DNA of 64,000 nucleotides, from assembly GCF_050920415.1 (NCBI RefSeq), contig NZ_CP169309.1; one strand, given 5' to 3'. The notes beneath the pieces were generated by a model. That model had not been told where the DNA came from. It searched no databases and saw only the letters and a program-made list of their open reading frames with translations. Source of the stretch: Escherichia coli (GTDB lineage Bacteria > Pseudomonadota > Gammaproteobacteria > Enterobacterales > Enterobacteriaceae). Position 1 is the first letter of the stretch; every line of letters starts with the position of its first letter. This document shows, one piece after another, positions 8,088 through 63,994 of the stretch. The position numbers and the translations under genes were made by a program.

Positions 8088-8088
8088 C

Positions 8089-8982: not shown

Positions 8983-8983
8983 G

Positions 8984-9175: not shown

Positions 9176-9177
9176 CT

Positions 9178-10383: not shown

Positions 10384-10640
10384 TGAATGTAAAAGAGAAG
10401 GTTTTTCAGGTGATGCGTTCCCGGGCTGCCCTGCAAGATAAAGCTCTCGGCGGGGAATATCCATTCAGGATGGCAACCTGGAATCTGCGGTTGGCAATGG
10501 AGAAGGAATTTCCTGATGAAGAATGGCGTTCGGCAGATTTGCGCAAAATTCTTATGGAGATGGCTAAAGACGGAACAGTATCCAAAGATACCCATGCCAG
10601 CCGGATTGGTCAGGCGGTATGGAGACTGGAGGTGAGGTAA
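10380..10640 (+). CDS. Hypothetical prophage protein (86 aa)
   Basis: Start overlaps previous stop; stop overlaps next start. Confidence 0.4.
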   Translation: MMNVKEKVFQVMRSRAALQDKALGGEYPFRMATWNLRLAMEKEFPDEEWRSADLRKILMEMAKDGTVSKDTHASRIGQAVWRLEVR

Positions 10641-10924
10641 TGGCTAACCTGCAACTTGCCGTTAAATGTGAATACTTCGATGCCATGATTCGTGGAGAGA
10701 AAACGGAAGAGTATCGCTTGTGTAATGACTACTGGAATAAGCGAATTATGTTCCGCGAGTACGACCGCCTGATTATCACAAAGGGATATCCGAAGCGCGA
10801 CGACTCCAGTCGTAGAATTGACGTCCCGTATGACGGATATGAAATCAAGACAATCATACATCCACACTTCGGTGATAAACCGGTAAAGGTGTTCGCGATA
10901 AAGGTGAATATCGGCAATGAATAA
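10640..10924 (+). CDS. Hypothetical prophage protein (94 aa from ATG 10640)
   Basis: GGAGGTGAGG RBS before ATG 10640; TAATG coupling with the upstream gene. Confidence 0.4.
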   Translation: MANLQLAVKCEYFDAMIRGEKTEEYRLCNDYWNKRIMFREYDRLIITKGYPKRDDSSRRIDVPYDGYEIKTIIHPHFGDKPVKVFAIKVNIGNE

Positions 10925-10995
10925 CATCCTCGCACTCGCGGGGATTTCTTTTATCTGAACTCGCTACGGCGGGTTTTGTTTTATGGAGATGATAA

Positions 10996-11163
10996 ATGCA
11001 CTTCCGAGTCACAGGTGAATGGAATGGAGAGCCATTCAACAGAGTTATCGAAGCAGAGAACATCAACGACTGCTATGACCACTGGATGCTGTGGGCGCAG
11101 ATAGCACATGCAGACGTAACCAATATTCGAATTGAAGAACTGAAAGAACACCAAGCCGCCTGA
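10996..11163 (+). CDS. Small protein upstream of xis (55 aa)
   Basis: GGAG RBS; stop codon lies in the loop of terminator 11156-11176. Confidence 0.4.
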   Translation: MHFRVTGEWNGEPFNRVIEAENINDCYDHWMLWAQIAHADVTNIRIEELKEHQAA

Positions 11164-11176
11164 TGGCGGTTTTTTC
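11156..11176 (+). terminator. Intrinsic terminator upstream of xis
   Basis: CCGCC-TGAT-GGCGG hairpin followed by TTTTTTCTT. Confidence 0.6.
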
Positions 11177-11202
11177 TTGCGTGTAATTGCGGAGACTTTG
11201 CG

Positions 11203-11421
11203 ATGTACTTGACACTTCAGGAGTGGAACGCTCGCCAGCGACGCCCAAGAAGCCTTGAAACAGTTCGTCGATGGGTGCGCGAATGCAGGATATTCCCTCC
11301 TCCGGTTAAGGATGGAAGAGAATATCTGTTCCACGAATCAGCGGTAAAGGTTGACTTAAATCGACCAGTAACAGGTAGCCTTTTGAAGAGGATCAGAAAT
11401 GGGAAGAAGGCGAAGTCATGA
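11203..11421 (+). CDS. xis: Excisionase, lambda Xis type (72 aa)
   Basis: Near-identical to lambda Xis as I recall it (MYLTLQEWNARQRRPRSLETVRRW...); overlaps int start. Confidence 0.9.
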   Translation: MYLTLQEWNARQRRPRSLETVRRWVRECRIFPPPVKDGREYLFHESAVKVDLNRPVTGSLLKRIRNGKKAKS

Positions 11422-12469
11422 GCGCCGGGATTTACCCCCTAACCTTTATATAAGAAACAATGGATATTACTGCTACAGGGACCCAAGGACGGGTAAAGAG
11501 TTTGGATTAGGCAGAGACAGGCGAATCGCAATCACTGAAGCCATACAGGCCAACATTGAGTTATTTTCAGGACACAAACACAAGCCTCTGACAGCGAGAA
11601 TCAACAGTGATAATTCCGTTACGTTACATTCATGGCTTGATCGCTACGAAAAAATCCTGGCCAGCAGAGGAATCAAGCAGAAGACACTCATAAATTACAT
11701 GAGCAAAATTAAAGCAATAAGGAGGGGGCTGCCTGATGCTCCACTTGAAGACATCACCACAAAAGAAATTGCGGCAATGCTCAATGGATACATAGACGAG
11801 GGCAAGGCGGCGTCAGCCAAGTTAATCAGATCAACACTGAGCGATGCATTCCGAGAGGCAATAGCTGAAGGCCATATAACAACAAACCCTGTCGCTGCCA
11901 CTCGCGCAGCAAAATCAGAGGTAAGGAGATCAAGACTTACGGCTGACGAATACCTGAAAATTTATCAAGCAGCAGAATCATCACCATGTTGGCTCAGACT
12001 TGCAATGGAACTGGCTGTTGTTACCGGGCAACGAGTTGGTGATTTATGCGAAATGAAGTGGTCTGATATCGTAGATGGATATCTTTATGTCGAGCAAAGC
12101 AAAACAGGCGTAAAAATTGCCATCCCAACAACATTGCATGTTGATGCTCTCGGGATATCAATGAAGGAAACACTTGATAAATGCAAAGAGATTCTTGGCG
12201 GAGAAACCATAATTGCATCTACTCGTCGTGAACCGCTTTCATCCGGCACAGTATCAAGGTATTTTATGCGCGCACGAAAAGCATCAGGTCTTTCCTTCGA
12301 AGGGGATCCGCCTACCTTTCACGAGTTGCGCAGTTTGTCTGCAAGACTCTATGAGAAGCAGATAAGCGATAAGTTTGCTCAACATCTTCTCGGGCATAAG
12401 TCGGACACCATGGCATCACAGTATCGTGATGACAGAGGCAGGGAGTGGGACAAAATTGAAATCAAATAA
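11399..12469 (+). CDS. int: Tyrosine integrase, lambda Int type (356 aa)
   Basis: Matches lambda Int (MGRRRSHERRDLPPNLYIRNNGYYCYRDPRTGKEF...; catalytic HELRS...LLGH...Y region). Confidence 0.95.
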   Translation: MGRRRSHERRDLPPNLYIRNNGYYCYRDPRTGKEFGLGRDRRIAITEAIQANIELFSGHKHKPLTARINSDNSVTLHSWLDRYEKILASRGIKQKTLINYMSKIKAIRRGLPDAPLEDITTKEIAAMLNGYIDEGKAASAKLIRSTLSDAFREAIAEGHITTNPVAATRAAKSEVRRSRLTADEYLKIYQAAESSPCWLRLAMELAVVTGQRVGDLCEMKWSDIVDGYLYVEQSKTGVKIAIPTTLHVDALGISMKETLDKCKEILGGETIIASTRREPLSSGTVSRYFMRARKASGLSFEGDPPTFHELRSLSARLYEKQISDKFAQHLLGHKSDTMASQYRDDRGREWDKIEIK

Positions 12470-12558
12470 TGATTTTATTTTGACTGATAGTGACCTGTTC
12501 GTTGCAACAAATTGATAAGCAATGCTTTTTTATAATGCCAACTTAGTATAAAAAAGCA
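12470..12558. other. attL (B-O-P'): lambda 15-bp core at 12544-12558 with P-prime arm 12470-12543; prophage/chromosome junction
   Basis: Minus strand reads GCTTTTTTATACTAAGTTGGCATTATAAAAAAGCATTGCTTATCAATTTGTTGCAACGAACAGGTCACTATCAGTCAAAATAAA, the lambda attP core and P-prime arm. Confidence 0.85.
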
Positions 12559-48568: not shown

Positions 48569-48582
48569 TTGATTTATATCAA
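48569..48582. promoter_or_regulatory. FNR-type site in the long AT-rich cydAB control region
   Basis: TTGATTTATATCAA (TTGAT-N4-ATCAA). Confidence 0.6.
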
Positions 48583-49035
48583 AACCAATCAAATATGTTA
48601 ATTATGTATAAACCATAGACCATTGGTAATTTTATTGTTAATTTATTGTGAAATATTTATGTAACACAATTATTACAATAAAAAGACATAGATAAAAAAC
48701 CAGTGTTTTATTTAACAGAATCGCCTTATCAACTTTTTATAATACCAATTGATTAGAGTAGCCAATTTGTTGCTATTTTACATAACATATTTTTATCAAA
48801 GTTAATTGATTGTTGCCTTTATGAGCATCGCCGTAAGACCGCCATGTTATTGTTTCATTTGTAATAATCACCAATAAGTATCGATGAGAGAGATATCGCT
48901 TAACAGAGGCGACTGTGTCTGCATGAACACAGGCAACTTTCGCCTGATAAACGAAAAATGAGCGATTTTTGCAAGTTAGTTTTTCTATAGCTGGGTACGC
49001 TGAGCGCCTCGCTTGATTACAATGAGGTTGCTGCC

Positions 49036-49980
49036 ATGGGTCTTGATAATATAGGTTCTGTTGTCAATCGCTTCTCTGGTTGGCCATCAAATGATCCTCT
49101 AAAAACAGATAACGAATCAATGACATCACCCGTGACTGTGCAGGTAATAAAGTTGATTGCCGCCATCCTTGACCCACATCGGATAGTCGTTGGTATCGAT
49201 ACACTCTATACAACGCAGCGCAAAACATTTACCTCAGAGGGTCAACAACTCATTGAATCAGCATTGAAAACACTTAATGTGATGAATTTAAATAACCTGG
49301 AAACAGATCGCGATGAGGAGGGTAACTATCTGGCTTTTGGATATAACGTTGACACTCCTGACAGAATAACCGTTTCTGCTTATAATGAAAAAAAACCTTT
49401 CTGTTATGGCCAATGTCTTTTAATACAGGATGAAGAACCAGATTTATTTAACCTGGTAAAAATTAAAACCTTTGAAGCCAGGCATAATTATGTTTCTAAA
49501 TTGATGAGCGATCCGGAATTTATGTTTAAATTCAGTTATAGCGCCCAACAAAATAGATTAGAACCTCATCTTCTGGTTCCCACTTATTTCCCTCTGAAAA
49601 CAAACCAACCGGTTACGCTAGAGGATTTACTGATACTTTATCGTTTCTTTAAAATGAATGGCGATTTTAATATATTAACATCAGATGAATACATGAGTAT
49701 CATGACACCTCTGATGAAGTGTGAGCGTAGTGTCCACGACCATAACAGGTATGTGACGGGCAAAGATGCTCTTCTTCTGGACAATCCTCCGTCTGGTAAC
49801 CAGATATATTTCCATATTTCCCCTGACGAATCAGCAACACTTGTCCTTTATTTTTCAGACAATAACCTTGAATCCTTCGTCTTTGAAAATGATATTCCGA
49901 GCCAGTATCGACATTTCAAAATGTTTACCAATTTAGCACTAGTTATTGATCAGTTAACCGACGCCAATCAAATACTTTAA
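49036..49980 (+). CDS. Hypothetical protein, AT-rich (314 aa)
   Basis: Long ORF with AT-rich codon usage unlike the flanking backbone; no family recognised. Confidence 0.5.
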   Translation: MGLDNIGSVVNRFSGWPSNDPLKTDNESMTSPVTVQVIKLIAAILDPHRIVVGIDTLYTTQRKTFTSEGQQLIESALKTLNVMNLNNLETDRDEEGNYLAFGYNVDTPDRITVSAYNEKKPFCYGQCLLIQDEEPDLFNLVKIKTFEARHNYVSKLMSDPEFMFKFSYSAQQNRLEPHLLVPTYFPLKTNQPVTLEDLLILYRFFKMNGDFNILTSDEYMSIMTPLMKCERSVHDHNRYVTGKDALLLDNPPSGNQIYFHISPDESATLVLYFSDNNLESFVFENDIPSQYRHFKMFTNLALVIDQLTDANQIL

Positions 49981-50059
49981 TTTTCTATACAGCCCTGTGT
50001 AAAATATTGCTAAACAGTGCCCGGGGTTGATTTTTATTCCTCACGGTGATATTTAAATC

Positions 50060-50482
50060 ATGACACCATCTCAGCTCTCTTTTAATACTCTTCCTGTCAA
50101 TGCAACATGCACTTCAGAGATAACAGTAAACACACAAAAATTCTCTGACATCCTCTACTCAGTGGGGTATTCCCTAAAGGATCTGGCTTATCTGAGCAGA
50201 TGTCTGGCATCATTACACCCAACACTCGCCAAAAACATTTATGAAACGGAAAATCTCAGCGATCAAAAATTACTTTATATAGATTGCCGTAGTACAAATG
50301 AAATCAAGATAAATATATTTTTGGGTCAAAAAAGAGAAGAATTAATCGAAATTAGTTCTGATACAGTCATTTTTTCGATACTGTCTTCATTGATTGACTC
50401 AGCTATTTCTGAACATCGACATCAAATCACCGTTAATGATTCAAATAATTCTGAACTATTTTATGAGGATTATACTGATTAA
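50060..50482 (+). CDS. Hypothetical acidic protein, AT-rich (140 aa)
   Basis: ORF co-oriented with and 80 nt downstream of 49036-49980. Confidence 0.45.
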   Translation: MTPSQLSFNTLPVNATCTSEITVNTQKFSDILYSVGYSLKDLAYLSRCLASLHPTLAKNIYETENLSDQKLLYIDCRSTNEIKINIFLGQKREELIEISSDTVIFSILSSLIDSAISEHRHQITVNDSNNSELFYEDYTD

Positions 50483-51024
50483 ATCCACTCTGTGCGAACC
50501 TGTCCTGCATTTATGCCAGAAGTATTAGAATCTTTGCTTAACGTTACTCATACAGTAGCACCTTCATGTGTCTCTCTTTTTTACGAACAATCAAAAGAAC
50601 TAACAAGGGGCATAATTCGTATAAATTATTAACCATTTGTTATATTCAACATTTTTTTACATTAAGCAGAGATGAATTGCAGTGAAATTCAAGTTAAATT
50701 TTACGAAATGTATTACTCATGGCTAAAAAATCTTCCCAAAATGCAAATTAGAAGTTGATCACAATTATCTCAATCCATCAAATCAAGATAATTTTAAAAA
50801 TTTAACATCAATGACAGCGGTTGGCATAACACACTGAATTAAAATGAAAATTTAAAAAACAATTTTTAAACAATCATTTCCCGAAAGACATTTTGAAAAT
50901 AGATCAATTGCAACATTACGGTCAGATAAAGACACTCCTCTGATATTAAACCTGTGCCGTTATGAACGGCCATAAATACGACGTGTGTAACTTAATTTAC
51001 TCTCTGTCTTACAAAGGATTACCC

Positions 51025-51474
51025 ATGAAGAAAGCAACACTTGTGATTGGCGTTATTGGCGCGGACTGCCATGCAGTAGGCAATAAAGTTCTGGACCGCG
51101 TTTTTAGCAACCATGACTTCAGAGTCATTAATCTGGGCGTAATGGTCAGCCAGGACGAATATATTGATGCTGCCATTGAAACTGGCGCTGACGCGATTGT
51201 CGTCTCCTCTATCTATGGGCATGGCGATATCGACTGTCTGGGCATGCGCGAACGCTGCATTGAGCGTGGCTTGGGGGACATCCTGCTCTATGTGGGCGGC
51301 AACCTGGTGGTCGGAAAACATGACTTCGCTGACGTGGAAACCAAGTTCAAAGAGATGGGATTTGATCGCGTCTTCGCCCCAAGTCATGACTTAGAAGATG
51401 TCTGCCAGCTGATGGCCCACGATATCAACCAACGTCATGGCGTTGAAACTTGCATTCTTGAAGAGGCAATCTGA
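51025..51474 (+). CDS. glmS: Glutamate mutase sigma subunit, B12-binding (methylaspartate mutase S; 149 aa from MKKATL)
   Basis: Close match to clostridial MutS/GlmS ([18 protein letters not shown]..., GDIDC...); symbol is not the glucosamine-6-P synthase. Confidence 0.85.
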
Positions 51475-52862
51475 TGCAAATCGTCTCTGTCGATATTGGA
51501 TCGACGTGGACCAAAGCAGCCCTCTTCACCCGGGAGGGGGACGCGTTAACGTTGGTTAACCACGTTCTGACCCCAACCACCATCCATCATCTGGCAGAGG
51601 GATTTTTCTCCAGCCTTAACCAGGTGTTAAACGTAGATAATGCCCTCCCCCTGTTAAACCGCGGTGAGGTTGCATTGAAGTATTCCTCTTCTGCCAAAGG
51701 TGGGCTGGCGGTTGCCGCAATGGGAATAGTGCCTTCTATCACTCTGGAAACCGCGAAAGTAACCGCTCACTCTGCAGGTGCTAAAATTGCGCAATATTAC
51801 TCCTACAAGCTGAACCGCCGTGATATCCAGGCACTAGAAGAAACGCAGCCCGATATTCTCTTGTTCACCGGCGGCACCGACGGCGGAGAAGAAAGCTACG
51901 GACTGAATAACGCCCGTGTGCTGGCAGAATCCAAACTCGACTGCGCCATTATTTATGCCGGAAACCGGGATATTCAGGACAAGGTGCAGGAGACCCTCGG
52001 GCATAAAGACCTGACCATCGTCGACAACGTTCTGCCCGATCTTGACCATCCGAACCCTTTAGCTGCACGCCAGGCTATCTGCGACATATTCCTTAAACGC
52101 ATCGTTAAAGGGAAAGGGCTGGATGTCATTGTTGATAAAACAGGCGAAGAACCAATGCCGACACCATGGACGGTCTTTGAACTGGTGAAGGCAATCAGTA
52201 ACGTCGATCACAGCTGGAAAGAGTTCATGCTGATCGACATGGGCGGCGCAACCACCGATGTCTATTCCGCCTGTGCCAACACGCTCTCGCCCGACACTGT
52301 TTTACATGGCGTACCGGAACCCTTCGTAAAACGGACGGTGGAAGGCGATCTGGGAATGCGCGTCTCGGCAATGGTGGTTGGTGAAAGTGCGAAAGAGTTA
52401 GTCAGTGTGAATTTTGCTCAGCAACCCGCACAGTTGGACGCTTTTTATCATTACCTCCGTCATCTAGTCGCTCATCCCGACTACTTACCCGCGAATGCAG
52501 ATGAAAAATATTTCGATACCGTCCTGGCCGGACTGTGTGTGGGTTATGCCACCGAAAGACATGCGGGCACCAAAAAAGAGGTCTGCACCTGCGTCGGCAA
52601 TGTCGATTTACAGATGGGACGTGACCTGACAACCGTGCGTAAAGTCGTGGGTTCCGGCGGATGGCTCTCGCGTGCCAGTCAGTTCGATATGCATCACTGG
52701 TTGAAATACCGCGAGTTAAACGACGACGGTAAACGCATTCTCTTACCGACCGAATTTGAATATTACCGCGATTCCCGGGGGCTATTACCACTGCTGGCAA
52801 ACGTCGCCAGAGTCGATCCGCTGGCCGCCGCGCGCACCAGTATTCAATGCTTAACCCTATAA
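51474..52862 (+). CDS. glmL: Glutamate mutase-associated MutL/GlmL-like protein (462 aa)
   Basis: Conserved position between the S and E subunits; start overlaps the glmS stop. Confidence 0.65.
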   Translation: MQIVSVDIGSTWTKAALFTREGDALTLVNHVLTPTTIHHLAEGFFSSLNQVLNVDNALPLLNRGEVALKYSSSAKGGLAVAAMGIVPSITLETAKVTAHSAGAKIAQYYSYKLNRRDIQALEETQPDILLFTGGTDGGEESYGLNNARVLAESKLDCAIIYAGNRDIQDKVQETLGHKDLTIVDNVLPDLDHPNPLAARQAICDIFLKRIVKGKGLDVIVDKTGEEPMPTPWTVFELVKAISNVDHSWKEFMLIDMGGATTDVYSACANTLSPDTVLHGVPEPFVKRTVEGDLGMRVSAMVVGESAKELVSVNFAQQPAQLDAFYHYLRHLVAHPDYLPANADEKYFDTVLAGLCVGYATERHAGTKKEVCTCVGNVDLQMGRDLTTVRKVVGSGGWLSRASQFDMHHWLKYRELNDDGKRILLPTEFEYYRDSRGLLPLLANVARVDPLAAARTSIQCLTL

Positions 52863-52880
52863 CAATTAAGGCTGCAATCA

Positions 52881-54326
52881 ATGGAACTTCGAAATAAGAA
52901 ATTAACCCATGACGAATTCATGACCGAGCGGCAACAGGTATTGAAAACCTGGGAAACCGGCAAGGATGTTGAAAACTTTGAAGATGGCGTTAAATACCAA
53001 CAAACCATTCCTGAGCATAAACGCTTCTCTCTTGCCCTGCTGAAAGCAGACAAGGAAGGTAAAACCCTTAGCCAACCGCGCGCAGGCGTGGCGCTGATGG
53101 ACGAACACATCGAACTACTGAAAACACTACAAGAAGAGTGCGATCTGCTGCCGAGCACTATCGATGCATATACCCGTCTGAATCGGTACGAAGAAGCGGC
53201 TGTAGGGATTAAAAAATCCATCGAAGCCGGAACCTCTAAACTGAACGGTTTACCGGTAGTTAACCACGGCGTCGCAGCTTGCCGTCGCCTCACCGAAACT
53301 CTGCAAAAACCGCTACAGATCCGCCACGGCACGCCTGATGCGCGTCTGCTGGCTGAAATCTCGATGGCCAGCGGCTTTACCAGTTATGAAGGCGGCGGCA
53401 TTTCCTACAATATTCCGTATGCCAAGCGCGTAACGCTGGAAAAATCGATCCGCGACTGGCAGTACTGCGATCGTTTAATGGGGATGTATGAAGAACACGG
53501 GATCCGCATCAACCGCGAACCGTTTGGCCCACTAACGGGTACGCTAATCCCGCCGTTTATCTCGCACTCTATCGCAATAATCGAAGGCTTGCTGGCACTG
53601 GAACAGGGTGTGAAGTCTATCACCGTTGGTTATGGTCAGGTCGGTAGCCTGACGCAGGATGTTGCGGCGATCCAGTCTCTGCGGGAACTTGCACACGAAT
53701 ATTTTCAGAGCTATGGCTATACCGACTACGAATTAAGTACCGTGTTTCACCAGTGGATGGGAGGCTTTCCGGAGGACGAATCGAAAGCGTTCGCCATTAT
53801 CTCCTGGGGTGCTGCCGTCGCGGGGATGTCTGGTGCTACCAAAGTCATCACCAAAAGTCCGCACGAAGCCTGGGGCATCCCGACTGCTGCTGCCAACATT
53901 CAGGGGCTAAAAGCCTCCCGCCAGATGCTCAACATGGTCAACGAGCAGAAATTCCCGCCGTGCCCGGCGGTTGAACTAGAAATTGAACTGATTAAGAGCG
54001 AGGTTCGCGCTGTACTGAACAAAGTGTTCGAACTGGGCAATGGTGATATTGCGCGCGGTACGGTGCTGGCATTTGAAGCGGGCGTACTGGATGTGCCGTT
54101 TGCGCCAGCCGCCTGCAACGCAGGCAAAATTCTTCCGGTCCGTGACAACACCGGCGCGATACGCGTACTGGAAGCCGGAGCCGTTCCATTGCCAAAAGAT
54201 ATTCTCGACCTCCACCACGATTACGTTGCTGAACGCGCGCGCTTTGAAGGACGCCAACCGACATTCCAGATGGTTGTAGATGACATCAATGCTGTATCCC
54301 ACAGTAAATTAATAGGAAGACCATAA
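52881..54326 (+). CDS. glmE: Glutamate mutase epsilon (catalytic) subunit (481 aa)
   Basis: Size and sequence fit MutE/GlmE. Confidence 0.8.
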   Translation: MELRNKKLTHDEFMTERQQVLKTWETGKDVENFEDGVKYQQTIPEHKRFSLALLKADKEGKTLSQPRAGVALMDEHIELLKTLQEECDLLPSTIDAYTRLNRYEEAAVGIKKSIEAGTSKLNGLPVVNHGVAACRRLTETLQKPLQIRHGTPDARLLAEISMASGFTSYEGGGISYNIPYAKRVTLEKSIRDWQYCDRLMGMYEEHGIRINREPFGPLTGTLIPPFISHSIAIIEGLLALEQGVKSITVGYGQVGSLTQDVAAIQSLRELAHEYFQSYGYTDYELSTVFHQWMGGFPEDESKAFAIISWGAAVAGMSGATKVITKSPHEAWGIPTAAANIQGLKASRQMLNMVNEQKFPPCPAVELEIELIKSEVRAVLNKVFELGNGDIARGTVLAFEAGVLDVPFAPAACNAGKILPVRDNTGAIRVLEAGAVPLPKDILDLHHDYVAERARFEGRQPTFQMVVDDINAVSHSKLIGRP

Positions 54327-55567
54327 TGAAAATAAAACAGGCCCTTTTTACCGCTGGCTACTCCTCATTCTATTTCGATGATCAGCAGGCGATAAAAAAC
54401 GGAGCGGGTCACGACGGCTTTTTTTATACCGGAGAGCCGGTAACACAGGGGTTTAACGCCGTACGTCAGGCCGGGGAGTGCGTTTCGGTTCAGTTGATTC
54501 TGGAAAACGGTGCGGTCGCCGTAGGCGACTGTGCTGCCGTACAGTATTCCGGGGCAGGCGGTCGCGATCCACTGTTCCTCGCAGAGCACTTTATTCCGTT
54601 CCTCAACGACCATATCAAGCCATTACTGGTAGGCCGCGATGTGGATGCTTTCCTGCCGAATGCCCGTTTCTTCGACAAATTGCGTATTGACGGAAACTTG
54701 CTGCATACCGCCGTACGTTATGGATTATCACAGGCGCTGCTTGATGCTACCGCGCTGGCAACCGGCCGTCTAAAAACTGAAGTGGTCTGTGATGAATGGC
54801 AGTTGCCACGCGTGGCGGAATCCATTCCATTATTTGGTCAGAGCGGAGACGATCGATATATCGCTGTCGATAAGATGATCCTTAAGGGCATCGACGTGCT
54901 ACCTCATGCGCTGATTAATAACGTCGAAGAGAAACTGGGCTTTAAAGGAGAAAAACTGCGCGAATATGTCCGTTGGCTATCCGATCGGATTCTAAGCAAA
55001 CGCACCAGCGCACGCTACCACCCTACCCTACACATCGATGTATACGGCACTATTGGTCTGATCTTCGATATGGATCCGCTTCGCTGTGCGCAATACATCG
55101 CCAGTCTGGAAAAAGAGGCGCAAGGCCTGCCGCTCTACATTGAGGGGCCGGTCGATGCCGGTAACAAGCCCGATCAAATCCGCCTGCTGACCGCGATTAC
55201 CAAAGAGCTGACGCGCCTCGGTTCCGGCGTGAAAATTGTGGCCGATGAATGGTGTAACACCTACCAGGATATTGTTGATTTCACTGATGCCGCCAGTTGC
55301 CACATGGTGCAAATCAAAACCCCGGATCTGGGCAGTATTCACAACATCGTCGATGCAGTTCTTTATTGCAACAGCCACAGCATGGAAGCGTACCAGGGCG
55401 GCACCTGCAATGAAACCGATGTCAGCGCCCGCACGTGTGTCCACGTCGCCCTTGCCGCTCGCCCCATGCGTATGCTGGTAAAACCGGGGATGGGCTTTGA
55501 CGAAGGCCTCGATATCGTCTTCAACGAAATGAATCGTACTATCGCGCTGTTGCAGGCTAAGGATTAA
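54326..55567 (+). CDS. mal: 3-methylaspartate ammonia-lyase (413 aa)
   Basis: Enolase-superfamily methylaspartase, N-terminus similar to clostridial MAL (MKIK...YFDDQ.AIK.GA). Confidence 0.85.
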   Translation: MKIKQALFTAGYSSFYFDDQQAIKNGAGHDGFFYTGEPVTQGFNAVRQAGECVSVQLILENGAVAVGDCAAVQYSGAGGRDPLFLAEHFIPFLNDHIKPLLVGRDVDAFLPNARFFDKLRIDGNLLHTAVRYGLSQALLDATALATGRLKTEVVCDEWQLPRVAESIPLFGQSGDDRYIAVDKMILKGIDVLPHALINNVEEKLGFKGEKLREYVRWLSDRILSKRTSARYHPTLHIDVYGTIGLIFDMDPLRCAQYIASLEKEAQGLPLYIEGPVDAGNKPDQIRLLTAITKELTRLGSGVKIVADEWCNTYQDIVDFTDAASCHMVQIKTPDLGSIHNIVDAVLYCNSHSMEAYQGGTCNETDVSARTCVHVALAARPMRMLVKPGMGFDEGLDIVFNEMNRTIALLQAKD

Positions 55568-55570
55568 CAA

Positions 55571-56941
55571 ATGGCTCGTTCTTTTAAAGTCTTATCGCCA
55601 ACGGCAATCCTCGGGTATGGATTCCCGGAAGAGAGCTTCCGCAAAGCGATGGCAGAATCGCCCGATCTGATCGCCGTTGATGCAGGATCTTCCGATCCAG
55701 GTCCCCACTACCTCGGGGCAGGCAAACCGTTTACCGATCGCGCAGGGGTCAAGCGCGATCTGCGCTATATGATCACCGCAGGCGTGCAAAATAATATACC
55801 GGTGGTGATCGGAACGGCCGGCGGTTCTGGTGCCGCTCCACACCTGGAGTGGTGCCGAGAAATAATTCATGAGATTGCCCGGGAAGAGCGCCTCGCGTTC
55901 TCGATGGCGCTGATCCCGGCAGACGTTGACAAAGCCATCGTCCACCAGGCGCTGGATAACGGCAAAATCACGGCGCTGGATTTTGTCCCGCCGTTAACCC
56001 ACGACTCGATTGACGAAAGTACGTATATCGTCGCGCAAATGGGCATCGAACCCTTCCAGCGGGCGCTGAAAGAAGGAGCGCAAGTGGTGCTGGGCGGGCG
56101 CGCTTACGACCCGGCCTGCTTTGCTGCGCTTCCGATCATGCAAGGCTTTGATGAAGGTCTGGCACTGCATTGTGGGAAAATCCTTGAATGTGCGGCAATC
56201 GCTGCAACACCCGGCTCAGGCTCTGACTGTGCGATGGGCATCATTGATGACAACGGCTTTACGCTGAAGACGTTTAATCCGAAGCGTAAATTTACCGAAA
56301 CGTCAGCTGCTGCACACACACTGTATGAGAAATCCGATCCCTACTTTCTGCCAGGACCTGGCGGCGTGCTAAACCTGAAAGGTTGCACATTTAAAGCGAT
56401 CAATGATGGCGAAGTGTACGTCAGCGGTTCTAAGCATGAAGAAACGCCCTATGCCCTGAAACTGGAAGGTGCGCGGCGGGTGGGTTTCCGCTGTTTGACC
56501 ATCGCCGGAACGCGCGACCCGATCATGATCGCCGGGATCGATAACATCATCGATGAAGTCAAAACCAGCGTTTCGCGTAATCTGTCCTTAGACGATGACA
56601 GCATTCGCATCAATTTCCACCTGTACGGCAAAAACGGGGTGATGGGTGACCATGAACCGATGCAAACTGCCGGGCATGAGCTGGGGATTGTCCTTGATGT
56701 AGTTGCACCGACCCAGGAAATTGCCAACAGCGTTTGCTCGCTGGTGCGCTCTACCATGCTGCACTACGGCTATGAAAACCGCATCGCTACCGCAGGCAAC
56801 CTGGCGTTCCCGTTCTCCCCTTCTGATATCCAGGGCGGGCCGGTATACGAATTTTCCATATATCACCTGATTGAAGCCAACGACGCTCTGCGTTTTGATT
56901 TCCATATTGAACAGGTGACGCCAGAAGGAGTTCAGGCATGA
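55571..56941 (+). CDS. Conserved hypothetical protein, DUF1446 (AtuA N-terminal-like) family (456 aa)
   Basis: Family assignment from memory of the AtuA-like fold; no catalytic motif identified. Confidence 0.5.
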   Translation: MARSFKVLSPTAILGYGFPEESFRKAMAESPDLIAVDAGSSDPGPHYLGAGKPFTDRAGVKRDLRYMITAGVQNNIPVVIGTAGGSGAAPHLEWCREIIHEIAREERLAFSMALIPADVDKAIVHQALDNGKITALDFVPPLTHDSIDESTYIVAQMGIEPFQRALKEGAQVVLGGRAYDPACFAALPIMQGFDEGLALHCGKILECAAIAATPGSGSDCAMGIIDDNGFTLKTFNPKRKFTETSAAAHTLYEKSDPYFLPGPGGVLNLKGCTFKAINDGEVYVSGSKHEETPYALKLEGARRVGFRCLTIAGTRDPIMIAGIDNIIDEVKTSVSRNLSLDDDSIRINFHLYGKNGVMGDHEPMQTAGHELGIVLDVVAPTQEIANSVCSLVRSTMLHYGYENRIATAGNLAFPFSPSDIQGGPVYEFSIYHLIEANDALRFDFHIEQVTPEGVQA

Positions 56942-57255
56942 AACAGTCAATTGTCTCACTGGCGCAAGTCATTCGTTCGAAAAATGCCGGACCTTACGAA
57001 CTGGTTTTAGATATTTTATTTAAAACGAAAGAAAACTATGAGCGAGTAAAATCATCAGGGCAATTAACCCCAGAACTGATTGCGCGCTTATATCATGTTG
57101 AACCTGACTTTATTCATCGTATTGTCTGGTTTGATCCTTCTAACGCAGTAAAAATTGTCATGCCACGAGATATTATCTCCGGGAATGTAGGTGACAATGA
57201 TGTCTATGGCGCACAGCAACATGCACCTTTATTAAATATGAGTTTCGATTTGTAA
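56938..57255 (+). CDS. Small partner protein, DUF4387-like (105 aa), translationally coupled to the preceding gene
   Basis: ATGA stop/start overlap with 55571-56941. Confidence 0.45.
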   Translation: MKQSIVSLAQVIRSKNAGPYELVLDILFKTKENYERVKSSGQLTPELIARLYHVEPDFIHRIVWFDPSNAVKIVMPRDIISGNVGDNDVYGAQQHAPLLNMSFDL

Positions 57256-57415
57256 AAATCCGAACACTTTTAGCCAACTGACATCCCGTCACTTATTGCA
57301 GCTCAACACTTCAGCTATTTGTAAGGTTGTTATAGCAGGTAGATGCCTGAATCTCTATTCAGGCATCCACTTCTCCTGATTCTGATTTATCGCCGTGCAC
57401 CTGATGGAGGAAAAA

Positions 57416-58696
57416 ATGAAGAAAATAAGTTTAACTACGATGATTCTTTTGGCGCTGGTACTTGGAATGATTATCGGCGTAGTGCTCAATAACACTGCTT
57501 CACCGGAAACAGCAAAACTCTATGCGCAAGAAATATCGATATTCACGACGATTTTCTTACGACTGATAAAAATGATTATCGCTCCGTTAGTGGTCTCTAC
57601 CCTGGTGGTAGGTATTGCTAAAATGGGCGATGCCAAAGCCCTTGGTCGTATTTTTTCTAAAACACTCTTTTTATTTATTTGCGCCTCATTGCTGTCAATT
57701 GCCTTAGGCTTGATAACGGTAAATTTCTTCATGCCAGGCACAGGAATTAATTTTGTTGCACACGGTGCCGAAACCACCGGAGTGGTCGCGTCAGAACCCT
57801 TTACACTAAAAGTATTTATTTCGCATGCTTTCCCCACCAGCATTGTCGATGCCATGGCGCACAATGAAATTTTGCAAATCGTGGTGTTCTCAATTTTCCT
57901 CGGCTGTAGCCTGACGGCGATTGGTGAGAAAGGCAGCGCCATCGTTCACGCCTTAGATTCGCTGGCACATGCCATGTTAAAGCTCACTGGCTACGTCATG
58001 CTCTTCGCTCCCCTGACCGTATTCGCCGCTATTTCAGCATTGATTGCTGAACGAGGACTGGCAGTTATGGTGAGCGCCGGGATCTTTATGGGTGAATTTT
58101 ATTTCACCATGTTATTACTTTGGGTGCTGCTTATCGGTCTGGCCATCGTTTATGTCGGCCCCTGCATCAGACGCCTGACCCGCGCCCTTTCAGAACCCGC
58201 CCTGCTGGCATTTACCACATCCAGTTCTGAAGCTGCTTTTCCGGGAACGCTTGAAAAACTGGAGCAATTTGGCGTTTCCCCCAAAATTGCCAGCTTTGTC
58301 TTACCCATTGGCTACTCATTTAATCTCGTTGGATCAATGGCCTACTGCTCCTTCGCCACAGTTTTCATCGCCCAGGCCTGCAATATCCATTTATCCATCG
58401 GTGAGCAAATCACCATGCTGTTGATCCTGATGTTGACCTCGAAAGGAATGGCTGGCGTACCACGCGCCTCAATGGTGGTTATCGCCGCCACGCTCAACCA
58501 GTTCAATATTCCGGAAGCGGGGCTGATCTTGCTGATGGGCGTTGATCCGTTCCTTGATATGGGGCGTTCCGCGACAAACGTCATGAGCAACGCAATGGGC
58601 GCTGCGATGGTGAGTCGGTGGGAAGGCGAACATTTCGGCGAGGGTTGTCGGGGTAAAGCATTAAAACCCAATGAATCGAACGTTGCTCTGCCCTGA
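57416..58696 (+). CDS. Dicarboxylate/amino acid:cation symporter (GltP/DctA-like; 426 aa from MKKISL)
   Basis: DAACS-family TM topology and conserved motifs; GGAGGA RBS before ATG 57416. Confidence 0.8.
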   Translation: MKKISLTTMILLALVLGMIIGVVLNNTASPETAKLYAQEISIFTTIFLRLIKMIIAPLVVSTLVVGIAKMGDAKALGRIFSKTLFLFICASLLSIALGLITVNFFMPGTGINFVAHGAETTGVVASEPFTLKVFISHAFPTSIVDAMAHNEILQIVVFSIFLGCSLTAIGEKGSAIVHALDSLAHAMLKLTGYVMLFAPLTVFAAISALIAERGLAVMVSAGIFMGEFYFTMLLLWVLLIGLAIVYVGPCIRRLTRALSEPALLAFTTSSSEAAFPGTLEKLEQFGVSPKIASFVLPIGYSFNLVGSMAYCSFATVFIAQACNIHLSIGEQITMLLILMLTSKGMAGVPRASMVVIAATLNQFNIPEAGLILLMGVDPFLDMGRSATNVMSNAMGAAMVSRWEGEHFGEGCRGKALKPNESNVALP

Positions 58697-58803
58697 GGGG
58701 GATCTTAAGCAATCAGAAGCCAATGACTACGCATTTTTATAAGCCGGATCATGAAGTTAGACGGCAATTAAGTAACACTAACGTTTAAGGTGAAAAGTGA
58801 AAT

Positions 58804-60456
58804 ATGTCCAAACCATTTATCTGGCAAGAACCGTTTCTACAAAATAAAGACGGTACAGAATATACATTAATTAGCGATCAACATATTACAGTAACGGAAT
58901 TAGACGGCGAAGAAGTGATAAAAATCGCTCCTGAAGCATTAACGCTGCTTGCCCGGCAGGCATTTTATGAAGCCTCTTTTTTCTTACGTTCCGCTCATTT
59001 GCAACAGGTCGCCAGCATTCTTAGCGATCCGCAGGCCAGTAGTAATGATAAATACGTTGCGTTGCAGTTATTACGTAATGCTGAAGTCTCAGCAAAAGGG
59101 GTATTACCCAACTGTCAGGATACCGGCACCGCAACTATTGTTGCCAGTAAAGGGCAACAGATATGGACGGGAGGTAACGACGCTGAAGCCTTAAGCAAAG
59201 GCATTTACAGTACTTTCCAGGAAAATAATCTGCGCTTTTCACAAAATGCGCCGCTGGATATGTATACCGAAGTCAATACGCAAACCAATCTCCCGGCGCA
59301 GATTGATATCAGCGCTGTCGCTGGTAATGAGTACCATTTTCTCTGTGTTAATAAAGGGGGCGGCTCCGCCAATAAAGCCGCGCTTTATCAGGAAACCAAA
59401 TCCTTATTGCAACCAGAAAAACTGACCGCGTTTTTAATCGACAAAATGAAATCGTTGGGCACGGCCGCCTGCCCGCCCTACCACATCGCCTTTGTCATCG
59501 GAGGGCTTTCAGCCGATCAAACCTTAAAAGTTGCCAAGCTGGCCTCTACGAAATATTACGACAATTTGCCCACCAGCGGAAACGAGCAGGGACAAGCATT
59601 CCGTGATATTGAGCTGGAAAAAGCGTTGCTCGAAGCCAGTCAGCAATTTGGTATTGGTGCGCAATTTGGGGGTAAATATTTCGCTCATGATATTCGCGTC
59701 ATTCGTCTGCCGCGTCACGGTGGCTCTTGCCCGATAGCTATGGCGCTCTCCTGTTCTGCCGATCGCAATATCAAAGCAAAAATTAACAAGCACGGTATCT
59801 GGCTGGAAAAACTCGAACACAATCCGGGGCAATATATTCCAGCCTCATTGCGGGAAGAAAATCACGCGCAACATGTACACCTGGATCTAAACCGTCCGTT
59901 GCGTGACGTGATGCAGGATCTCGCCAGATTACCGGTAGGTACCCGCGTGTCGTTAAGTGGTCCCATCGTAGTGGCGCGCGATATCGCCCACGCAAAAATA
60001 AAAGCGCGGCTGGATAGCGGCGAATCGATGCCGGATTACCTGAAGCATCATATTGTCTATTACGCTGGCCCGGCGAAAACACCGGAGAACATGGCCTGCG
60101 GTTCACTGGGTCCAACCACGGGCGGTCGAATGGACGGTTATGTCGAAACCTTCCAGGCGGCTGGCGGCAGTCTGGTAATGTTATCGAAAGGTAACCGCAG
60201 CCAGCAGGTCACCGATGCCTGTCACAAACATGGCGGCTTCAATCTGGGAAGTATTGGCGGTGCAGCTGCGTTACTGGCGCAAGAATATGTCAAAAGTCTG
60301 CGTTGCCTGGAATACCCGGAGCTGGGTATGGAGGCGGTGTGGATGATGGAAGTGGAAAATCTGCCCGCATTCATCCTGGTCGATGATAAAGGCAATAATT
60401 TCTTTAGTCAGTTTGAGCAGCAACACCGCTGCGCCAGTTGCCCTGCGGGACATTAA
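58804..60456 (+). CDS. fumD: Class I (Fe-S) fumarate hydratase paralogue, mesaconase/fumarase FumD (550 aa)
   Basis: FumA/FumB-family length and motifs; clustered with glutamate mutase and methylaspartase. Confidence 0.8.
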
Positions 60457-60465
60457 GGAAAATGA

Positions 60466-61068
60466 ATGGAAGCGCGAATTTCAACTGAACGGCATGTGCA
60501 GCGCCAGCAGAAATTGAAGGAACAGGTCGATACGCGCGTCGCGGCGGCGATAGAGAAAAAAGGGATCTTGATTGTTTTCACCGGCAACGGCAAAGGGAAA
60601 TCCACTGCCGCGTTTGGTACTGTGACGCGCGCGGTGGGTCATGGCAAAACGGTGGGGGTTGCACAGTACATCAAGGGGCAATGGGACAACGGCGAATACA
60701 ACCTTCTCCAGCCGCTGGGGGTTGAGTTTCATATTATGGGAACCGGTTTTACCTGGGAGACTCAGAACCGGCAAGCGGATATCGATGCGGCGAAAGAGGT
60801 CTGGTCGGAAAGCAAACGGATGCTGGCTGACAAGCGTTACGACTTAGTGGTGCTTGATGAGCTCACCTATATGCTGGCTTACCATTATCTGGATACAGAA
60901 GAAGTGATCACTTCTCTGCAAAACCGTCCGGCACAACAAAGTGTCATTGTCACCGGACGCGGTTGCCACAGTCAGATATTAAAAATGGCGGATACGGTAA
61001 GTGAAATCCGCCCCGTCAAACATGCTTTTGATAACGGCATTCAGGCCCAGCCGGGGATCGACTGGTAA
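60466..61068 (+). CDS. Cob(I)alamin adenosyltransferase, BtuR/CobA family (200 aa)
   Basis: Strong similarity to E. coli BtuR (IIVFTGNGKGKSTAAFG...VVLDELTYM...TGRGC...VKHAFD.G..AQ.GID). Confidence 0.85.
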   Translation: MEARISTERHVQRQQKLKEQVDTRVAAAIEKKGILIVFTGNGKGKSTAAFGTVTRAVGHGKTVGVAQYIKGQWDNGEYNLLQPLGVEFHIMGTGFTWETQNRQADIDAAKEVWSESKRMLADKRYDLVVLDELTYMLAYHYLDTEEVITSLQNRPAQQSVIVTGRGCHSQILKMADTVSEIRPVKHAFDNGIQAQPGIDW

Positions 61069-61101
61069 TAACTGCGCCTGGCATCCCGCCAGGCGCAGGT
61101 T

Positions 61102-62007
61102 TTACATCTCCTGCGGTACGACCGATTTCGCCAGCAACCATTCACGAAATTGCTGCAAGTGCGGAGAGTCAGACTTCTCTTCCTGCCACGTCATAATAAA
61201 ACGATTACCGGTACGAATAGGCACATCACAGGGGATCACCATATCGCCACTATCCAAATCATGTTGAATAGCGAACCGTGGTAACAGCGCCACGCCGAGA
61301 TTAGAGCGCACGGCGGCAATCAGCATTGAAAGCAAATCGAAACGTGGTCCGTTATTGACCAGCGGACTGCTAACGCCAGATAAAGCAAACCACTCTTCCC
61401 AGCCAGTAATACGGGTGCTTTGATGCAGAAGTGGTAACTCAGTAAGCAGTTCTGCCACTGACAGTTTTTGATCGGACATTGCAAGCAAACTGCCGCTGCA
61501 TACCGGCAAAATCTCCTCTTCAAAGAGATATTCTACTTCCGCCCAGGGCGCGCAAAAATTTTCGCGCATAATGACAGCATCGTACTCCCGATTAAGAAAA
61601 TCGCCGTTATTAGCTAAAGAATGAATATTAACAATAATATCGGGATGTAACTTTGTGAATTCATGTAAATTTGGGATTAACCAGTGGGTACTAAACGTAG
61701 GATTAACGGCAAGTTCAATAACCTGAACCGTAGGCTGCCAGGTCATAATCGTATTGGTATCGCGTTCCAGCTTATTTAATGTTTCTTTTACTATCCCCAG
61801 GTAATACTTCCCTGCATCATTAAGAAAAATGCGTTTTTTAGAGTGTGAAAATAACGGAGTATGTAAAAATTCCTCCAGCGCACTTACTTGTCTGAATACA
61901 GCACTTTGGGTTAACGCTAACTCCTCAGCCGCTCTGGTATAACTTTCATGTCGTGCGACGACCTCAAAAGTCACCAGCAGCTCCGTTTTAGGTATTTTTC
62001 CTCGCAT
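61102..62007 (-). CDS. LysR-family transcriptional regulator (about 301 aa from MRGKIPKT)
   Basis: N-terminal LysR HTH (ELALTQSAVFRQVSALEEFL); divergent from the downstream rtcB-like gene. Confidence 0.8.
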   Translation of the reverse strand: MRGKIPKTELLVTFEVVARHESYTRAAEELALTQSAVFRQVSALEEFLHTPLFSHSKKRIFLNDAGKYYLGIVKETLNKLERDTNTIMTWQPTVQVIELAVNPTFSTHWLIPNLHEFTKLHPDIIVNIHSLANNGDFLNREYDAVIMRENFCAPWAEVEYLFEEEILPVCSGSLLAMSDQKLSVAELLTELPLLHQSTRITGWEEWFALSGVSSPLVNNGPRFDLLSMLIAAVRSNLGVALLPRFAIQHDLDSGDMVIPCDVPIRTGNRFIMTWQEEKSDSPHLQQFREWLLAKSVVPQEM

Positions 62008-62221
62008 AATGCCGTCCGTGAAAAAATAACAACTCAAAAATTATTTTATAAAAAACAGTAGCACTAATGAATATCATAATTCAAATAAACAAACCAGTCA
62101 GCTATATGTCTAACCAGGAAAATAAAGTGACAATAATCCTAAAACAGGAATTTCACCTCAGTTATCCGCATGCAATACTTTAAAGCTATTATTGCAAGAA
62201 TATTATTCATATACATGAATA

Positions 62222-62345
62222 TACTCTAAATAAGTCAAGTTGCAGGAAGGGAACAAATAATGAATTTCCAGAAGCTTACATAAGTAAGTGACCTGGGTGA
62301 GCGAACATCGATGCAGCACATGCAACTTGAATTATGACAAGTATA
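62222..62345. repeat. ERIC/IRU intergenic repeat (second copy)
   Basis: Near-identical to 16341-16465 incl. AAGTAAGTGACCTGGGTGAGCG. Confidence 0.8.
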
Positions 62346-62596
62346 CAATGATAAATTTATATACCCTATGTTATATATTATCTATGTCCGGTTAAATTGA
62401 ATGAGTCATAGCCTTAAAAGACTTCACAAAAGATAATTCCTCTTTAACAATAAGCCAGATTTACCACTTGTAAAACTTGCTATCGCCACATACACTACGC
62501 GCGTTTTCTTTCCCTTTTGCTGGCTGCTGACCGGAAAGACAAAATTACCCTCGCAATACAGGGGGTTGTTTAACGTCTATATTTCAGGACAGCGTT

Positions 62597-63994
62597 ATGC
62601 ATCATCTTTTAAGGCTTGATAAAGCCTTTCTGCGCAAAGGGATCCAACTTTCCCGTGCCAACAATATTGTTTCATTATGTCGTCCATCAGGAGCCAGTGC
62701 CCGCGTACTGCTGCCGGACGAACTGCCGCTGGAAGAAAAAGCAGTGACACAACTGCTTGATTTTGCAGAAGTGAAGATACCAGGCCATCCAGGTTACGTA
62801 CGCCAGACGTGCGCGACGCCAGATTTTCATCCCGGCAATGGCGTCCCCGTTGGCGCGGTGGTGGCCTCAACGCCGGATTTAGTCATTCCCGCCGCCATCG
62901 GCACCGATATTTCTTGTGGCATGCGGCTGCTGACGACCGGATTAACACTTGAGCAAGCCGAAGCGCATAAAGACGTCATCGCTCAGCGGTTAACGCAAGT
63001 GCTACTGCAAAATGAGCGCGATGTTCCGTTATCCGCACAGGCGTTCACCGCGCTTTTTGATGGCGGACCGGCAGATTGCGTGTCGACCTTGCCATCAGCA
63101 GGTCTCTGGACACGCACGAATATCCCCCGAATGGTACAAGAGATTGACCGCTGCATTGGGCTTAACGAGCATAACAGTCATTCGCGTTATGCCCCACCCG
63201 CCCTGCTGGCAACGGACCGCGCATTACTCCGCGATCCTTGTCTGGGTACGCCGGGTTCAGGTAATCATTTTATTGAACTTCAGGTCGTTGATAGCGTGGT
63301 TGATCGCCATGTAGCCTGGCAACAAGGGCTGAAAACAGGCGATATTGTGGTGATGATCCACAGTGGATCGCGAGATGTTGGCTTTTACGTCGGAAGACGC
63401 TGGATGGATCGCGCCCGTGCTGAATGGCCCACCGGACATAAACATCCACAAAGCGGGTTATATGGTCTGGCAGGCGGACTGGCGGAGGAATATCTACAAG
63501 CGATAGGAATGGCGGCGCGTTACGCGTGGTTAAATCGCGTGACAATTGCCGAAATGGTGCGCGTATGTCTTGCCAATCTCTTTCATCAGGACAATTCGCA
63601 TCTGGTGGTGGATGTGCCACATAACATCATCCTTCGCGAGCATGAAATGAATATTCATCGCAAAGGCGCAACACCGGCACGAGTGGGCAATCTGGCGTTA
63701 ATCCCTGGTTCAATGGGCGATTATTCGTGGCTTGCGGTAGGTTGCGGCAACCCGGAGTGGCTGTGGTCATGCAGTCACGGAGCAGGACGCAGCCAGCGTC
63801 GGCAGGCCATGCGCTCACGCGCGACTGAAGAGTCAACGCTGCCGTGGCAATGCGTCACATTGCGCGAAGAACGACGTCTTGAAGAAGCGCCAGCGGCTTA
63901 TAAAGATATTGGTCCGGTTATCGAAGCTCAACAAGAAGCCGGATTAATTCAGCCAGCGGTCAGATTTCGACCGTGGTTAACGTTTAAAGCATAA
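62597..63994 (+). CDS. RtcB-family RNA ligase paralogue (465 aa)
   Basis: RtcB motifs GSGNHF, HSGSRDVG, SCSHGAGR. Confidence 0.75.
   Translation: MHHLLRLDKAFLRKGIQLSRANNIVSLCRPSGASARVLLPDELPLEEKAVTQLLDFAEVKIPGHPGYVRQTCATPDFHPGNGVPVGAVVASTPDLVIPAAIGTDISCGMRLLTTGLTLEQAEAHKDVIAQRLTQVLLQNERDVPLSAQAFTALFDGGPADCVSTLPSAGLWTRTNIPRMVQEIDRCIGLNEHNSHSRYAPPALLATDRALLRDPCLGTPGSGNHFIELQVVDSVVDRHVAWQQGLKTGDIVVMIHSGSRDVGFYVGRRWMDRARAEWPTGHKHPQSGLYGLAGGLAEEYLQAIGMAARYAWLNRVTIAEMVRVCLANLFHQDNSHLVVDVPHNIILREHEMNIHRKGATPARVGNLALIPGSMGDYSWLAVGCGNPEWLWSCSHGAGRSQRRQAMRSRATEESTLPWQCVTLREERRLEEAPAAYKDIGPVIEAQQEAGLIQPAVRFRPWLTFKA

Follow-up and report, generated by a model that had tools for sequence, protein, structure and literature searches.

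An operon beside cydAB in Escherichia coli that very probably encodes the complete methylaspartate pathway, with citramalate lyase as its last enzyme

Results

We analyzed a stretch of 64,000 nucleotides from Escherichia coli (assembly GCF_050920415.1, contig NZ_CP169309.1; the window in what follows), in which positions 51025 to 61068 very probably constitute a complete and intact operon of the enterobacterial methylaspartate pathway, leading from glutamate to pyruvate and acetate. A preliminary description, made from the sequence alone, had placed a co-oriented cluster at exactly these coordinates, and the cluster proved to consist of nine plus-strand open reading frames (ORFs) that lack internal stops and are joined by short or overlapping junctions. 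The annotated glmS ATG begins at position 51025 and the cobA/cobO stop codon ends at position 61068, according to the RefSeq annotation of the nearly identical strain MFDS1022581. In order, and all on the plus strand, the genes are glmS (51025 to 51474), for the B12-binding sigma subunit of glutamate (methylaspartate) mutase; glmL, or mutL (51474 to 52862), for the accessory/reactivating protein of the mutase; glmE (52881 to 54326), for its catalytic epsilon subunit; mal (54326 to 55567), for 3-methylaspartate ammonia-lyase; cmlA (55571 to 56941) and cmlB (56938 to 57255), for the predicted large subunit (AtuA/DUF1446 family, 456 residues) and small subunit (DUF4387, 105 residues) of citramalate lyase; a gene for a dicarboxylate/amino acid:cation symporter (DAACS; 57416 to 58696, with the RefSeq start at 57416); fumD (58804 to 60456), for a class I [4Fe-4S] fumarase paralogue predicted to act as mesaconase; and the BtuR-like cobA/cobO (60466 to 61068), for an ATP:cob(I)alamin adenosyltransferase. 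Each of the nine is preceded by a Shine-Dalgarno-like sequence, and the genes overlap at three junctions (glmS/glmL, glmE/mal, and cmlA/cmlB, where cmlB shares 4 bases with the end of cmlA including its stop).

Seven of the nine products (GlmS, GlmE, the MutL-like protein, methylaspartase, the DAACS carrier, the FumD-type fumarase, and the BtuR-like adenosyltransferase) had been named correctly in the preliminary description, the enzymes scoring above NCBIfam cut-offs and the transporter matching at the family level. That listing omitted cmlA and cmlB, which together occupy 55571 to 57255, or 17% of the interval. Neither CmlA nor CmlB has an NCBIfam match; in Pfam, CmlA matches AtuA (PF07287) weakly and partially (E value of 1.5e-18, residues 63 to 394), and CmlB matches DUF4387 (E value of 2.9e-39). 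Along their full lengths, however, CmlA is identical to chain A of PDB entry 9ERQ at 419 of 456 residues (91.9%) and CmlB to chain B at 88 of 104 (84.6%); the latter is also 100% identical to ECs_0759 of E. coli O157:H7 strain Sakai. Chains A and B of 9ERQ and of 9EVF, deposited in 2025, were named by their depositors "Citramalate lyase, subunit A (cmlA)" and "subunit B (cmlB)," and an AlphaFold model of CmlA (39 homologues; predicted local distance difference test score, 85.8) superposes on chain A of 9EVF with a template modeling score of 0.93. The entry titles give AMPPNP plus citramalate and ADP plus pyruvate as the crystal ligands, the title of 9EVF, released on 2025-10-08, being "Citramalate lyase - ADP - pyruvate complex." In vivo, cmlAB of Raoultella planticola is reported to convert citramalate to pyruvate and acetate, and growth on mesaconate depends on the plasmid and on cmlAB, with label entering acetyl coenzyme A (acetyl-CoA) (bioRxiv 10.64898/2026.01.16.699985).

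By analogy with the Raoultella enzyme and from the titles of the PDB entries, CmlAB of the window would thus cleave (S)-citramalate to pyruvate and acetate. Since cmlA and cmlB correspond to the two citramalate lyase subunits in the PDB, the encoded pathway would go on past citramalate. The preliminary description had the genes convert glutamate through mesaconate to (S)-citramalate; the gene assignments fit that route, which would continue one step beyond the point at which the description left it.

Matches to CmlA number 6,819, and identity is at least 62% among the best 120 listed, which include proteins from Riflebacteria, Lentisphaerae, Holophagaceae, and Accumulibacter. We inspected the gene context at eight non-enterobacterial cmlAB loci (62 to 68% identity). 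At six of them mal lies immediately upstream of cmlA, within the arrangement glmS-(mutL)-glmE-mal-cmlA-cmlB, and distant genomes such as those of Riflebacteria and Lentisphaerae have the full order glmS-mutL-glmE-mal-cmlA-cmlB. A class I fumarase gene lies in or adjoins the cluster at four of the eight loci; one locus combines cmlAB and a fumarase gene without glm or mal genes within 9 kb, and one has cmlAB alone. CitDEF-type lyase genes were found at none of the eight, nor are genes of the CitD, CitE, CitF or the CitC, CitX, CitG type present among the island ORFs, all of which are accounted for. This context is the pattern that would be expected if CmlAB were the lyase acting after mesaconase.

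Directly after cmlB, seven of the eight loci carry a gene for a conserved protein of about 310 residues with the Walker A motif GAEGAGKSTL (10712 to 11665 in L005, 10677 to 11618 in L006, 10698 to 11654 in L007, 10714 to 11685 in L011, 14269 to 15201 in L012, 10698 to 11621 in L013, and 10706 to 11629 in L014). These P-loop proteins are 50 to 69% identical to the reference copy and have no Pfam match, no solved relative, and no homologue in the window. The protein may be an uncharacterized accessory factor of the pathway that lacks a counterpart in enterobacteria. CobA was considered as such a counterpart and rejected, as sequence comparison found the two unrelated beyond the Walker A motif.

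The remaining operon proteins were assigned with NCBIfam equivalog or subfamily models and their curated cut-offs. GlmS scores 250 bits against a cut-off of 110 for NF002612 and is likewise above the cut-off for TIGR01501; it matches the Clostridium glutamate mutase structures 1I9C and 1CCW over its full length (E value of 1.5e-49), carries the DxHxxG motif of base-off/His-on B12 binding as D14-C-H16-A-V-G19, and is 98.0% identical to ECs_0764 of Sakai. GlmE reaches 865 bits against 390 for TIGR01503, matches the epsilon subunit (chain B of 6H9E and 1CCW) over its full length (E value of 2e-190), and is 99.8% identical to ECs_0762, with a ratio of nonsynonymous to synonymous substitution rates (dN/dS) of 0.006. 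GlmL, encoded between glmS and glmE and 97.6% identical to ECs_0763, passes NF040745 by a narrow margin (505.7 bits against 475) and scores 877 bits with TIGR01319. CobA scores 246 bits against 168 for TIGR00708 and 295 against 185 for NF004637; its translation contains the CobA-type P-loop GNGKGKST and is 99.5% identical to ECs_0756. GlmS and GlmE thus have the sequence features of an adenosylcobalamin-dependent glutamate mutase, and family membership suggests that they would catalyze the mutase reaction, with GlmL as reactivase and CobA as adenosyltransferase.

For Mal, TIGR01502 gives 544 bits against a cut-off of 286, the Citrobacter methylaspartase structure 1KKO matches over its full length with an E value of 3.6e-270, and ECs_0761 is 99.8% identical. 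All eight active-site residues are found (Q172, H194, D238, E273, D307, Q329, K331, and C361). Among these, we take Lys331 and His194 to be the catalytic bases and Asp238, Glu273, and Asp307 to be the Mg ligands, with Gln329 also in the site, on the pattern of the Clostridium tetanomorphum and Citrobacter amalonaticus structures. FumD scores 1,274 bits against 1,060 for NF011921, more than with the FumA and FumB models, and falls under the cut-offs of the FumA model (926 against 1,105) and of NF011920 (922 against 1,094); it therefore belongs to a third, distinct orthologue group. It matches a solved class I fumarase structure over its full length and contains Cys104, Cys223, and Cys317, which would correspond to the [4Fe-4S] ligands of class I fumarases (Cys105, Cys224, and Cys318 in FumA). 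FumD is 97.8% identical to the kinetically characterized ECs_0757, for which kcat/Km is 2e6 M-1 s-1 with mesaconate versus 7.5e5 with fumarate (PMC4682846); the preference for mesaconate, known for this O157:H7 orthologue only, would be shared by the protein of the window.

The DAACS carrier is 99.8% identical to ECs_0758 and scores below the cut-offs of both DctA (314 bits against 513) and GltP (304 against 638); from its position, its substrate may be glutamate or a C4/C5 dicarboxylate. The slightly better score with DctA, a C4-dicarboxylate carrier, is one reason to consider that the operon serves mainly for external C5 dicarboxylates or methylaspartate (mesaconate, citramalate, or 3-methylaspartate), with the mutase accessory or running in reverse. 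Such a use would agree with the two distant loci that have cmlAB without glm and mal genes and with the finding that neither glutamate nor methylaspartate alone supported growth of any enterobacterium tested (PMC4682846). Four of the nine genes (glmS, glmL, glmE, and cobA) nevertheless serve only the B12-dependent interconversion of glutamate and methylaspartate, and these four are under strong purifying selection (dN/dS, 0.006 to 0.17). We therefore regard a primary role in external C5 compounds as improbable and glutamate as the starting point of the route.

As the preliminary description had it, the cluster is that of E. coli O157:H7. In Sakai, ECs_0755 to ECs_0764 lie at the same site between sucD and cydA in the same order and orientation, and all nine operon proteins (ECs_0756 to ECs_0764) are 97.6 to 100% identical to those of the window, with 96.4 to 99.1% DNA identity for the operon genes. 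The Sakai locus differs in that only remnants are left of an RtcB gene and a repeat that the window strain has between its lysR gene and sucD, and in that its two ORFans beside cydA are only 84 to 86% identical to those of the window.

The variable segment in which the operon lies extends from 48608 to 63986. Toward cydA, K-12 homology stops in BLASTN comparison at 48607, or 373 bases upstream of the start of this gene, and it resumes at 63987 on the sucD side, at the mngR stop beside sdhX and sucD. The island had been described as inserted next to cydAB, with mngB as the K-12 neighbor; the position next to cydAB stands, whereas the segment of 15.4 kb is not inserted beside mngB and instead takes the place of the 5.9-kb mngR-mngA-mngB of K-12 (765155 to 771084). 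The same comparison confirmed that K-12 lacks the cluster at this site, and none of the best matches of its ORFs falls in unrelated enzyme families. In addition to the operon genes, the segment contains two low-GC ORFans, a LysR gene, a repeat of the enterobacterial repetitive intergenic consensus (ERIC) type, and an RtcB paralogue, and its GC content is a mosaic (33 to 38% in the ORFans, 51 to 55% in the operon). Among 5,426 complete E. coli genomes, 1,117 (20.6%) have at least 80% of the operon length and 1,135 have any match, 18 of them partial only; mngRAB is present in 3,864, and at least about 400 have neither. No integrase, transposase, tRNA insertion site, or flanking direct repeats were found within or around 48608 to 63986. 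The segment is a strain-variable allele of a hot spot between sucD and cydA, not a mobile element. In a derivative of E. coli O127:H6 E2348/69 (NZ_LT903847.1, 4107906 to 4113182; our locus L009), the two ORFans and an intact glmS are followed by ISEc13, an mngA remnant, and mngR, so that an insertion sequence (IS) element stands where the glm operon and the mng locus, both truncated, meet.

The loss of most of the cluster from some lineages, such as E2348/69, in which glmS alone remains beside ISEc13, and the 18 partial copies might suggest a silent, decaying remnant without present function in E. coli, the more so as no laboratory expression was found (PMC4682846). Relative to Sakai, a strain that is 2 to 4% divergent in DNA, dN/dS is 0 to 0.17 across the nine operon genes and 0.05 for the LysR gene, which argues against a decaying remnant. 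The nine ORFs are intact, moreover, and at least 80% of the cluster length is kept in the 1,117 genomes. We consider decay the least credible of the explanations weighed here.

Downstream of the operon, a GC-rich hairpin at 61072 to 61098 (11 pairs, 9 of them G-C), detected by a terminator scan and also as an inverted repeat, lies between the convergent cobA and lysR and probably ends the operon as a bidirectional terminator. The LysR-family regulator gene, GcvA-like, is a RefSeq coding sequence on the minus strand at 61102 to 62007 and converges on cobA. Its product scores 221 bits with NF008352, below the cut-off of 288, and is identical to ECs_0755 at 299 of 301 residues; in loci L013 and L014, too, the homologous clusters have LysR genes beside them. 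Judged by its position, the gene is a likely candidate for the operon regulator. The AT-rich region upstream of glmS (50483 to 51024, plus strand) is the presumed promoter/regulatory region; its only FNR box candidate, at 50755 to 50768, has 2 mismatches and is at chance level. A perfect FNR box at 48569 to 48582 belongs to the cydA upstream region common to K-12. At the gathering threshold, Rfam models detected no RNA element, and specifically no cobalamin riboswitch, within the operon or close to it, and elsewhere in the window only tRNAs, RtT, the cpoB thermometer, and an ALIL element of an IS3 insertion sequence. Within the operon, cmlB is separated from the transporter gene by a spacer of 160 bases, which contains a perfect 11-bp stem-loop at 57340 to 57368 (GATGCCTGAAT-CTCT-ATTCAGGCATC) without a T tract; the overall folding of the spacer is not unusual (z score, -1.1).

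On the cydA side lie two plus-strand ORFans, of 314 residues (49036 to 49980; about 35% GC) and 140 residues (50060 to 50482; low GC), with no match in Pfam, NCBIfam, PADLOC, or PHROG and only 5 protein clusters in a database of 5.8 billion sequences. They co-occur with the operon in all 1,135 genomes and diverge much faster, 843 genomes having 80 to 90% DNA identity versus 95 to 99% for the operon; compared with Sakai, the larger is 85.7% identical to ECs_0767 (dN/dS, 0.37) and the smaller 83.6% identical to ECs_0766 (dN/dS, 0.35). A role of the ORFans in the pathway was considered and rejected, since a 62% homologue of the 314-residue protein adjoins cydA at the same site in a relative without the glm operon.

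On the sucD side, the spacer between the LysR and RtcB genes contains an ERIC/intergenic repeat unit-type repeat at 62211 to 62345 (...AAGCTTACATAAGTAAGTGACCTGGGTGAGCG...) with 25-nucleotide inverted arms, 85% identical to a copy in the ybhI-ybhJ spacer of Sakai. The RtcB-family RNA ligase paralogue (465 residues; 62597 to 63994, plus strand) matches Pfam RtcB with an E value of 1.5e-94 and is below all NCBIfam cut-offs; rtcA, rtcR, or prfH does not adjoin it. Its region is at least 80% present in only 144 of the 5,426 genomes and present in part in 300, and Sakai, in which the gene is absent, keeps only remnants of 50 to 57 bases from its 3' end. The RtcB paralogue is a variable passenger of the island.

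At the far end of the window, positions 1 to 12538 have no match in NZ_CP169399.1, which is elsewhere 99.99 to 100% identical. This part is the end of a lambdoid prophage beside ybhC, with a tyrosine integrase ORF at 11399 to 12469 and, both by similarity, a Rad52-type recombinase and an XRE repressor. The site beside ybhC is presumably the classical lambda attachment site. An IS3-family element lies in the prophage at about 2933 to 4146, with an ALIL frameshift pseudoknot at 3749 to 3865.

Discussion

Our analysis points to a route that would run as follows. The DAACS carrier would import the substrate, presumably glutamate or a related dicarboxylate, and GlmS and GlmE, with adenosylcobalamin, would convert (S)-glutamate to (2S,3S)-3-methylaspartate. 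GlmL would reactivate the mutase, and the CobA-type enzyme would re-adenosylate cob(I)alamin derived from corrinoid taken up by the cell. Mal would then remove ammonia to give mesaconate, FumD would hydrate mesaconate to (S)-citramalate, and CmlAB would cleave the latter to pyruvate and acetate, a nucleotide taking part in some way. E. coli is not known to make the corrin ring, and the route would therefore depend on imported corrinoid. Activity has been shown for near-identical orthologues of two of these proteins, as mesaconase for FumD and in vivo for Mal, the O157:H7 methylaspartase having been reported as functional in a 2025 preprint, and by analogy both would be active here.

Several points weigh against this proposal. 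The evidence for the reactions comes entirely from orthologues, the strain of the window and its proteins being known from sequence, and the assignment of CmlAB draws on the molecule names of PDB entries and on a single preprint, in which the enzyme was that of Raoultella. Upstream of glmS, where a sigma-70 scan gave 23 sites versus 25.2 expected from shuffled sequences, we could not delimit a promoter. For O157:H7 ATCC 700728, Kronen and Berg found no condition of expression and no anaerobic growth on glutamate; they detected no citramalate lyase activity in O157:H7 extracts, judged the fate of citramalate unclear, and proposed secretion as a possibility (PMC4682846). The preliminary description had stated correctly that their 2015 paper left this fate open. 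On these grounds, the pathway might end at (S)-citramalate, which would be excreted, for example to act on the host or on competitors, and the AtuA/DUF4387 pair would be unrelated to it. The extracts came, however, from cells grown on citrate, acetate, or propionate, in which the cluster was not expressed (PMC4682846). In addition, the operon itself contains cmlA and cmlB as a translationally coupled pair, placed after mal and before the transporter gene; their products are 92% and 85% identical to a deposited citramalate lyase with citramalate and pyruvate bound; the Raoultella genes support growth that depends on mesaconate; and the linkage of mal, cmlA, and cmlB is maintained across phyla. 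We accordingly give an endpoint at citramalate very little credence and retain a pathway that reaches pyruvate and acetate. The question of the fate of citramalate has very probably been answered since, by the PDB deposits of 2025.

As to mechanism, the ligand pairs in the entry titles, AMPPNP with citramalate and ADP with pyruvate, suggest that the nucleotide is a co-substrate, possibly by way of an acyl phosphate. One tentative hypothesis, which we think somewhat doubtful, is that CmlAB activates citramalate with ATP by phosphorylation of the C4 carboxylate and then splits it to pyruvate and acetyl phosphate, from which acetate kinase recovers ATP. If this is true, acyl phosphate would join CoA thioesters and acyl-carrier thioesters as a third means of turning an acetate carbanion into a workable leaving group. 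Other AtuA-family proteins would then be suggested as similar lyases, for example at the step that releases acetate when acyclic terpenes are degraded. The AtuA protein encoded in the Pseudomonas cluster for acyclic terpene utilization belongs to the same Pfam family (PF07287) as CmlA, although the match is weak and partial and the genomic context is unrelated. To our knowledge, the biochemical role of AtuA itself has not been established.

The CmlAB proteins compared here (PDB 9ERQ and 9EVF; the preprint used cmlAB of Raoultella planticola) come from a species other than E. coli. The clusters of Clostridium tetanomorphum and Clostridium tetani resemble the operon in that they encode both glutamate mutase subunits (S and E), MutL/GlmL, methylaspartase, and, as mesaconase, an iron-sulfur enzyme akin to class I fumarases, and the overall conversion of glutamate to pyruvate, acetate, and ammonia is the same. 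The clostridial mesaconase is the two-subunit MesAB, however, whereas the enterobacterial enzyme is a single protein of 550 residues, and a CitDEF-type, acyl-carrier-dependent citramalate lyase with CitCXG maturation stands in the place of CmlAB. The enterobacterial operon, moreover, adds CobA and the DAACS carrier and has a LysR rather than a GntR regulator. The haloarchaeal methylaspartate cycle differs further, in that mesaconate is converted to mesaconyl-CoA for acetate assimilation, without mesaconase or citramalate lyase.

Kronen and Berg described the cluster in O157:H7 and other enterobacteria, present in 26.5% of the E. coli strains with sequences at that time, and recorded the function of the DUF1446 gene downstream of mal as unknown (PMC4682846). 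The 2015 paper covered the cluster, its occurrence among strains, and the activity of FumD, and the last enzyme entered the PDB in 2025, so that all essentials are already known. The current labels are misleading, ECs_0760 being called "3-methylaspartate ammonia-lyase" and ECs_0759 "acyl-CoA synthetase" in Sakai, and the RefSeq names being "AtuA family" and "DUF4387." ECs_0759 and ECs_0760 should be annotated as citramalate lyase subunits. The use of our analysis lies in this correction, as under the present labels a complete B12-dependent pathway that would turn glutamate into pyruvate, acetate, and ammonia goes unnoticed. About one in five E. coli strains, among them nearly all of O157:H7, would have this pathway.

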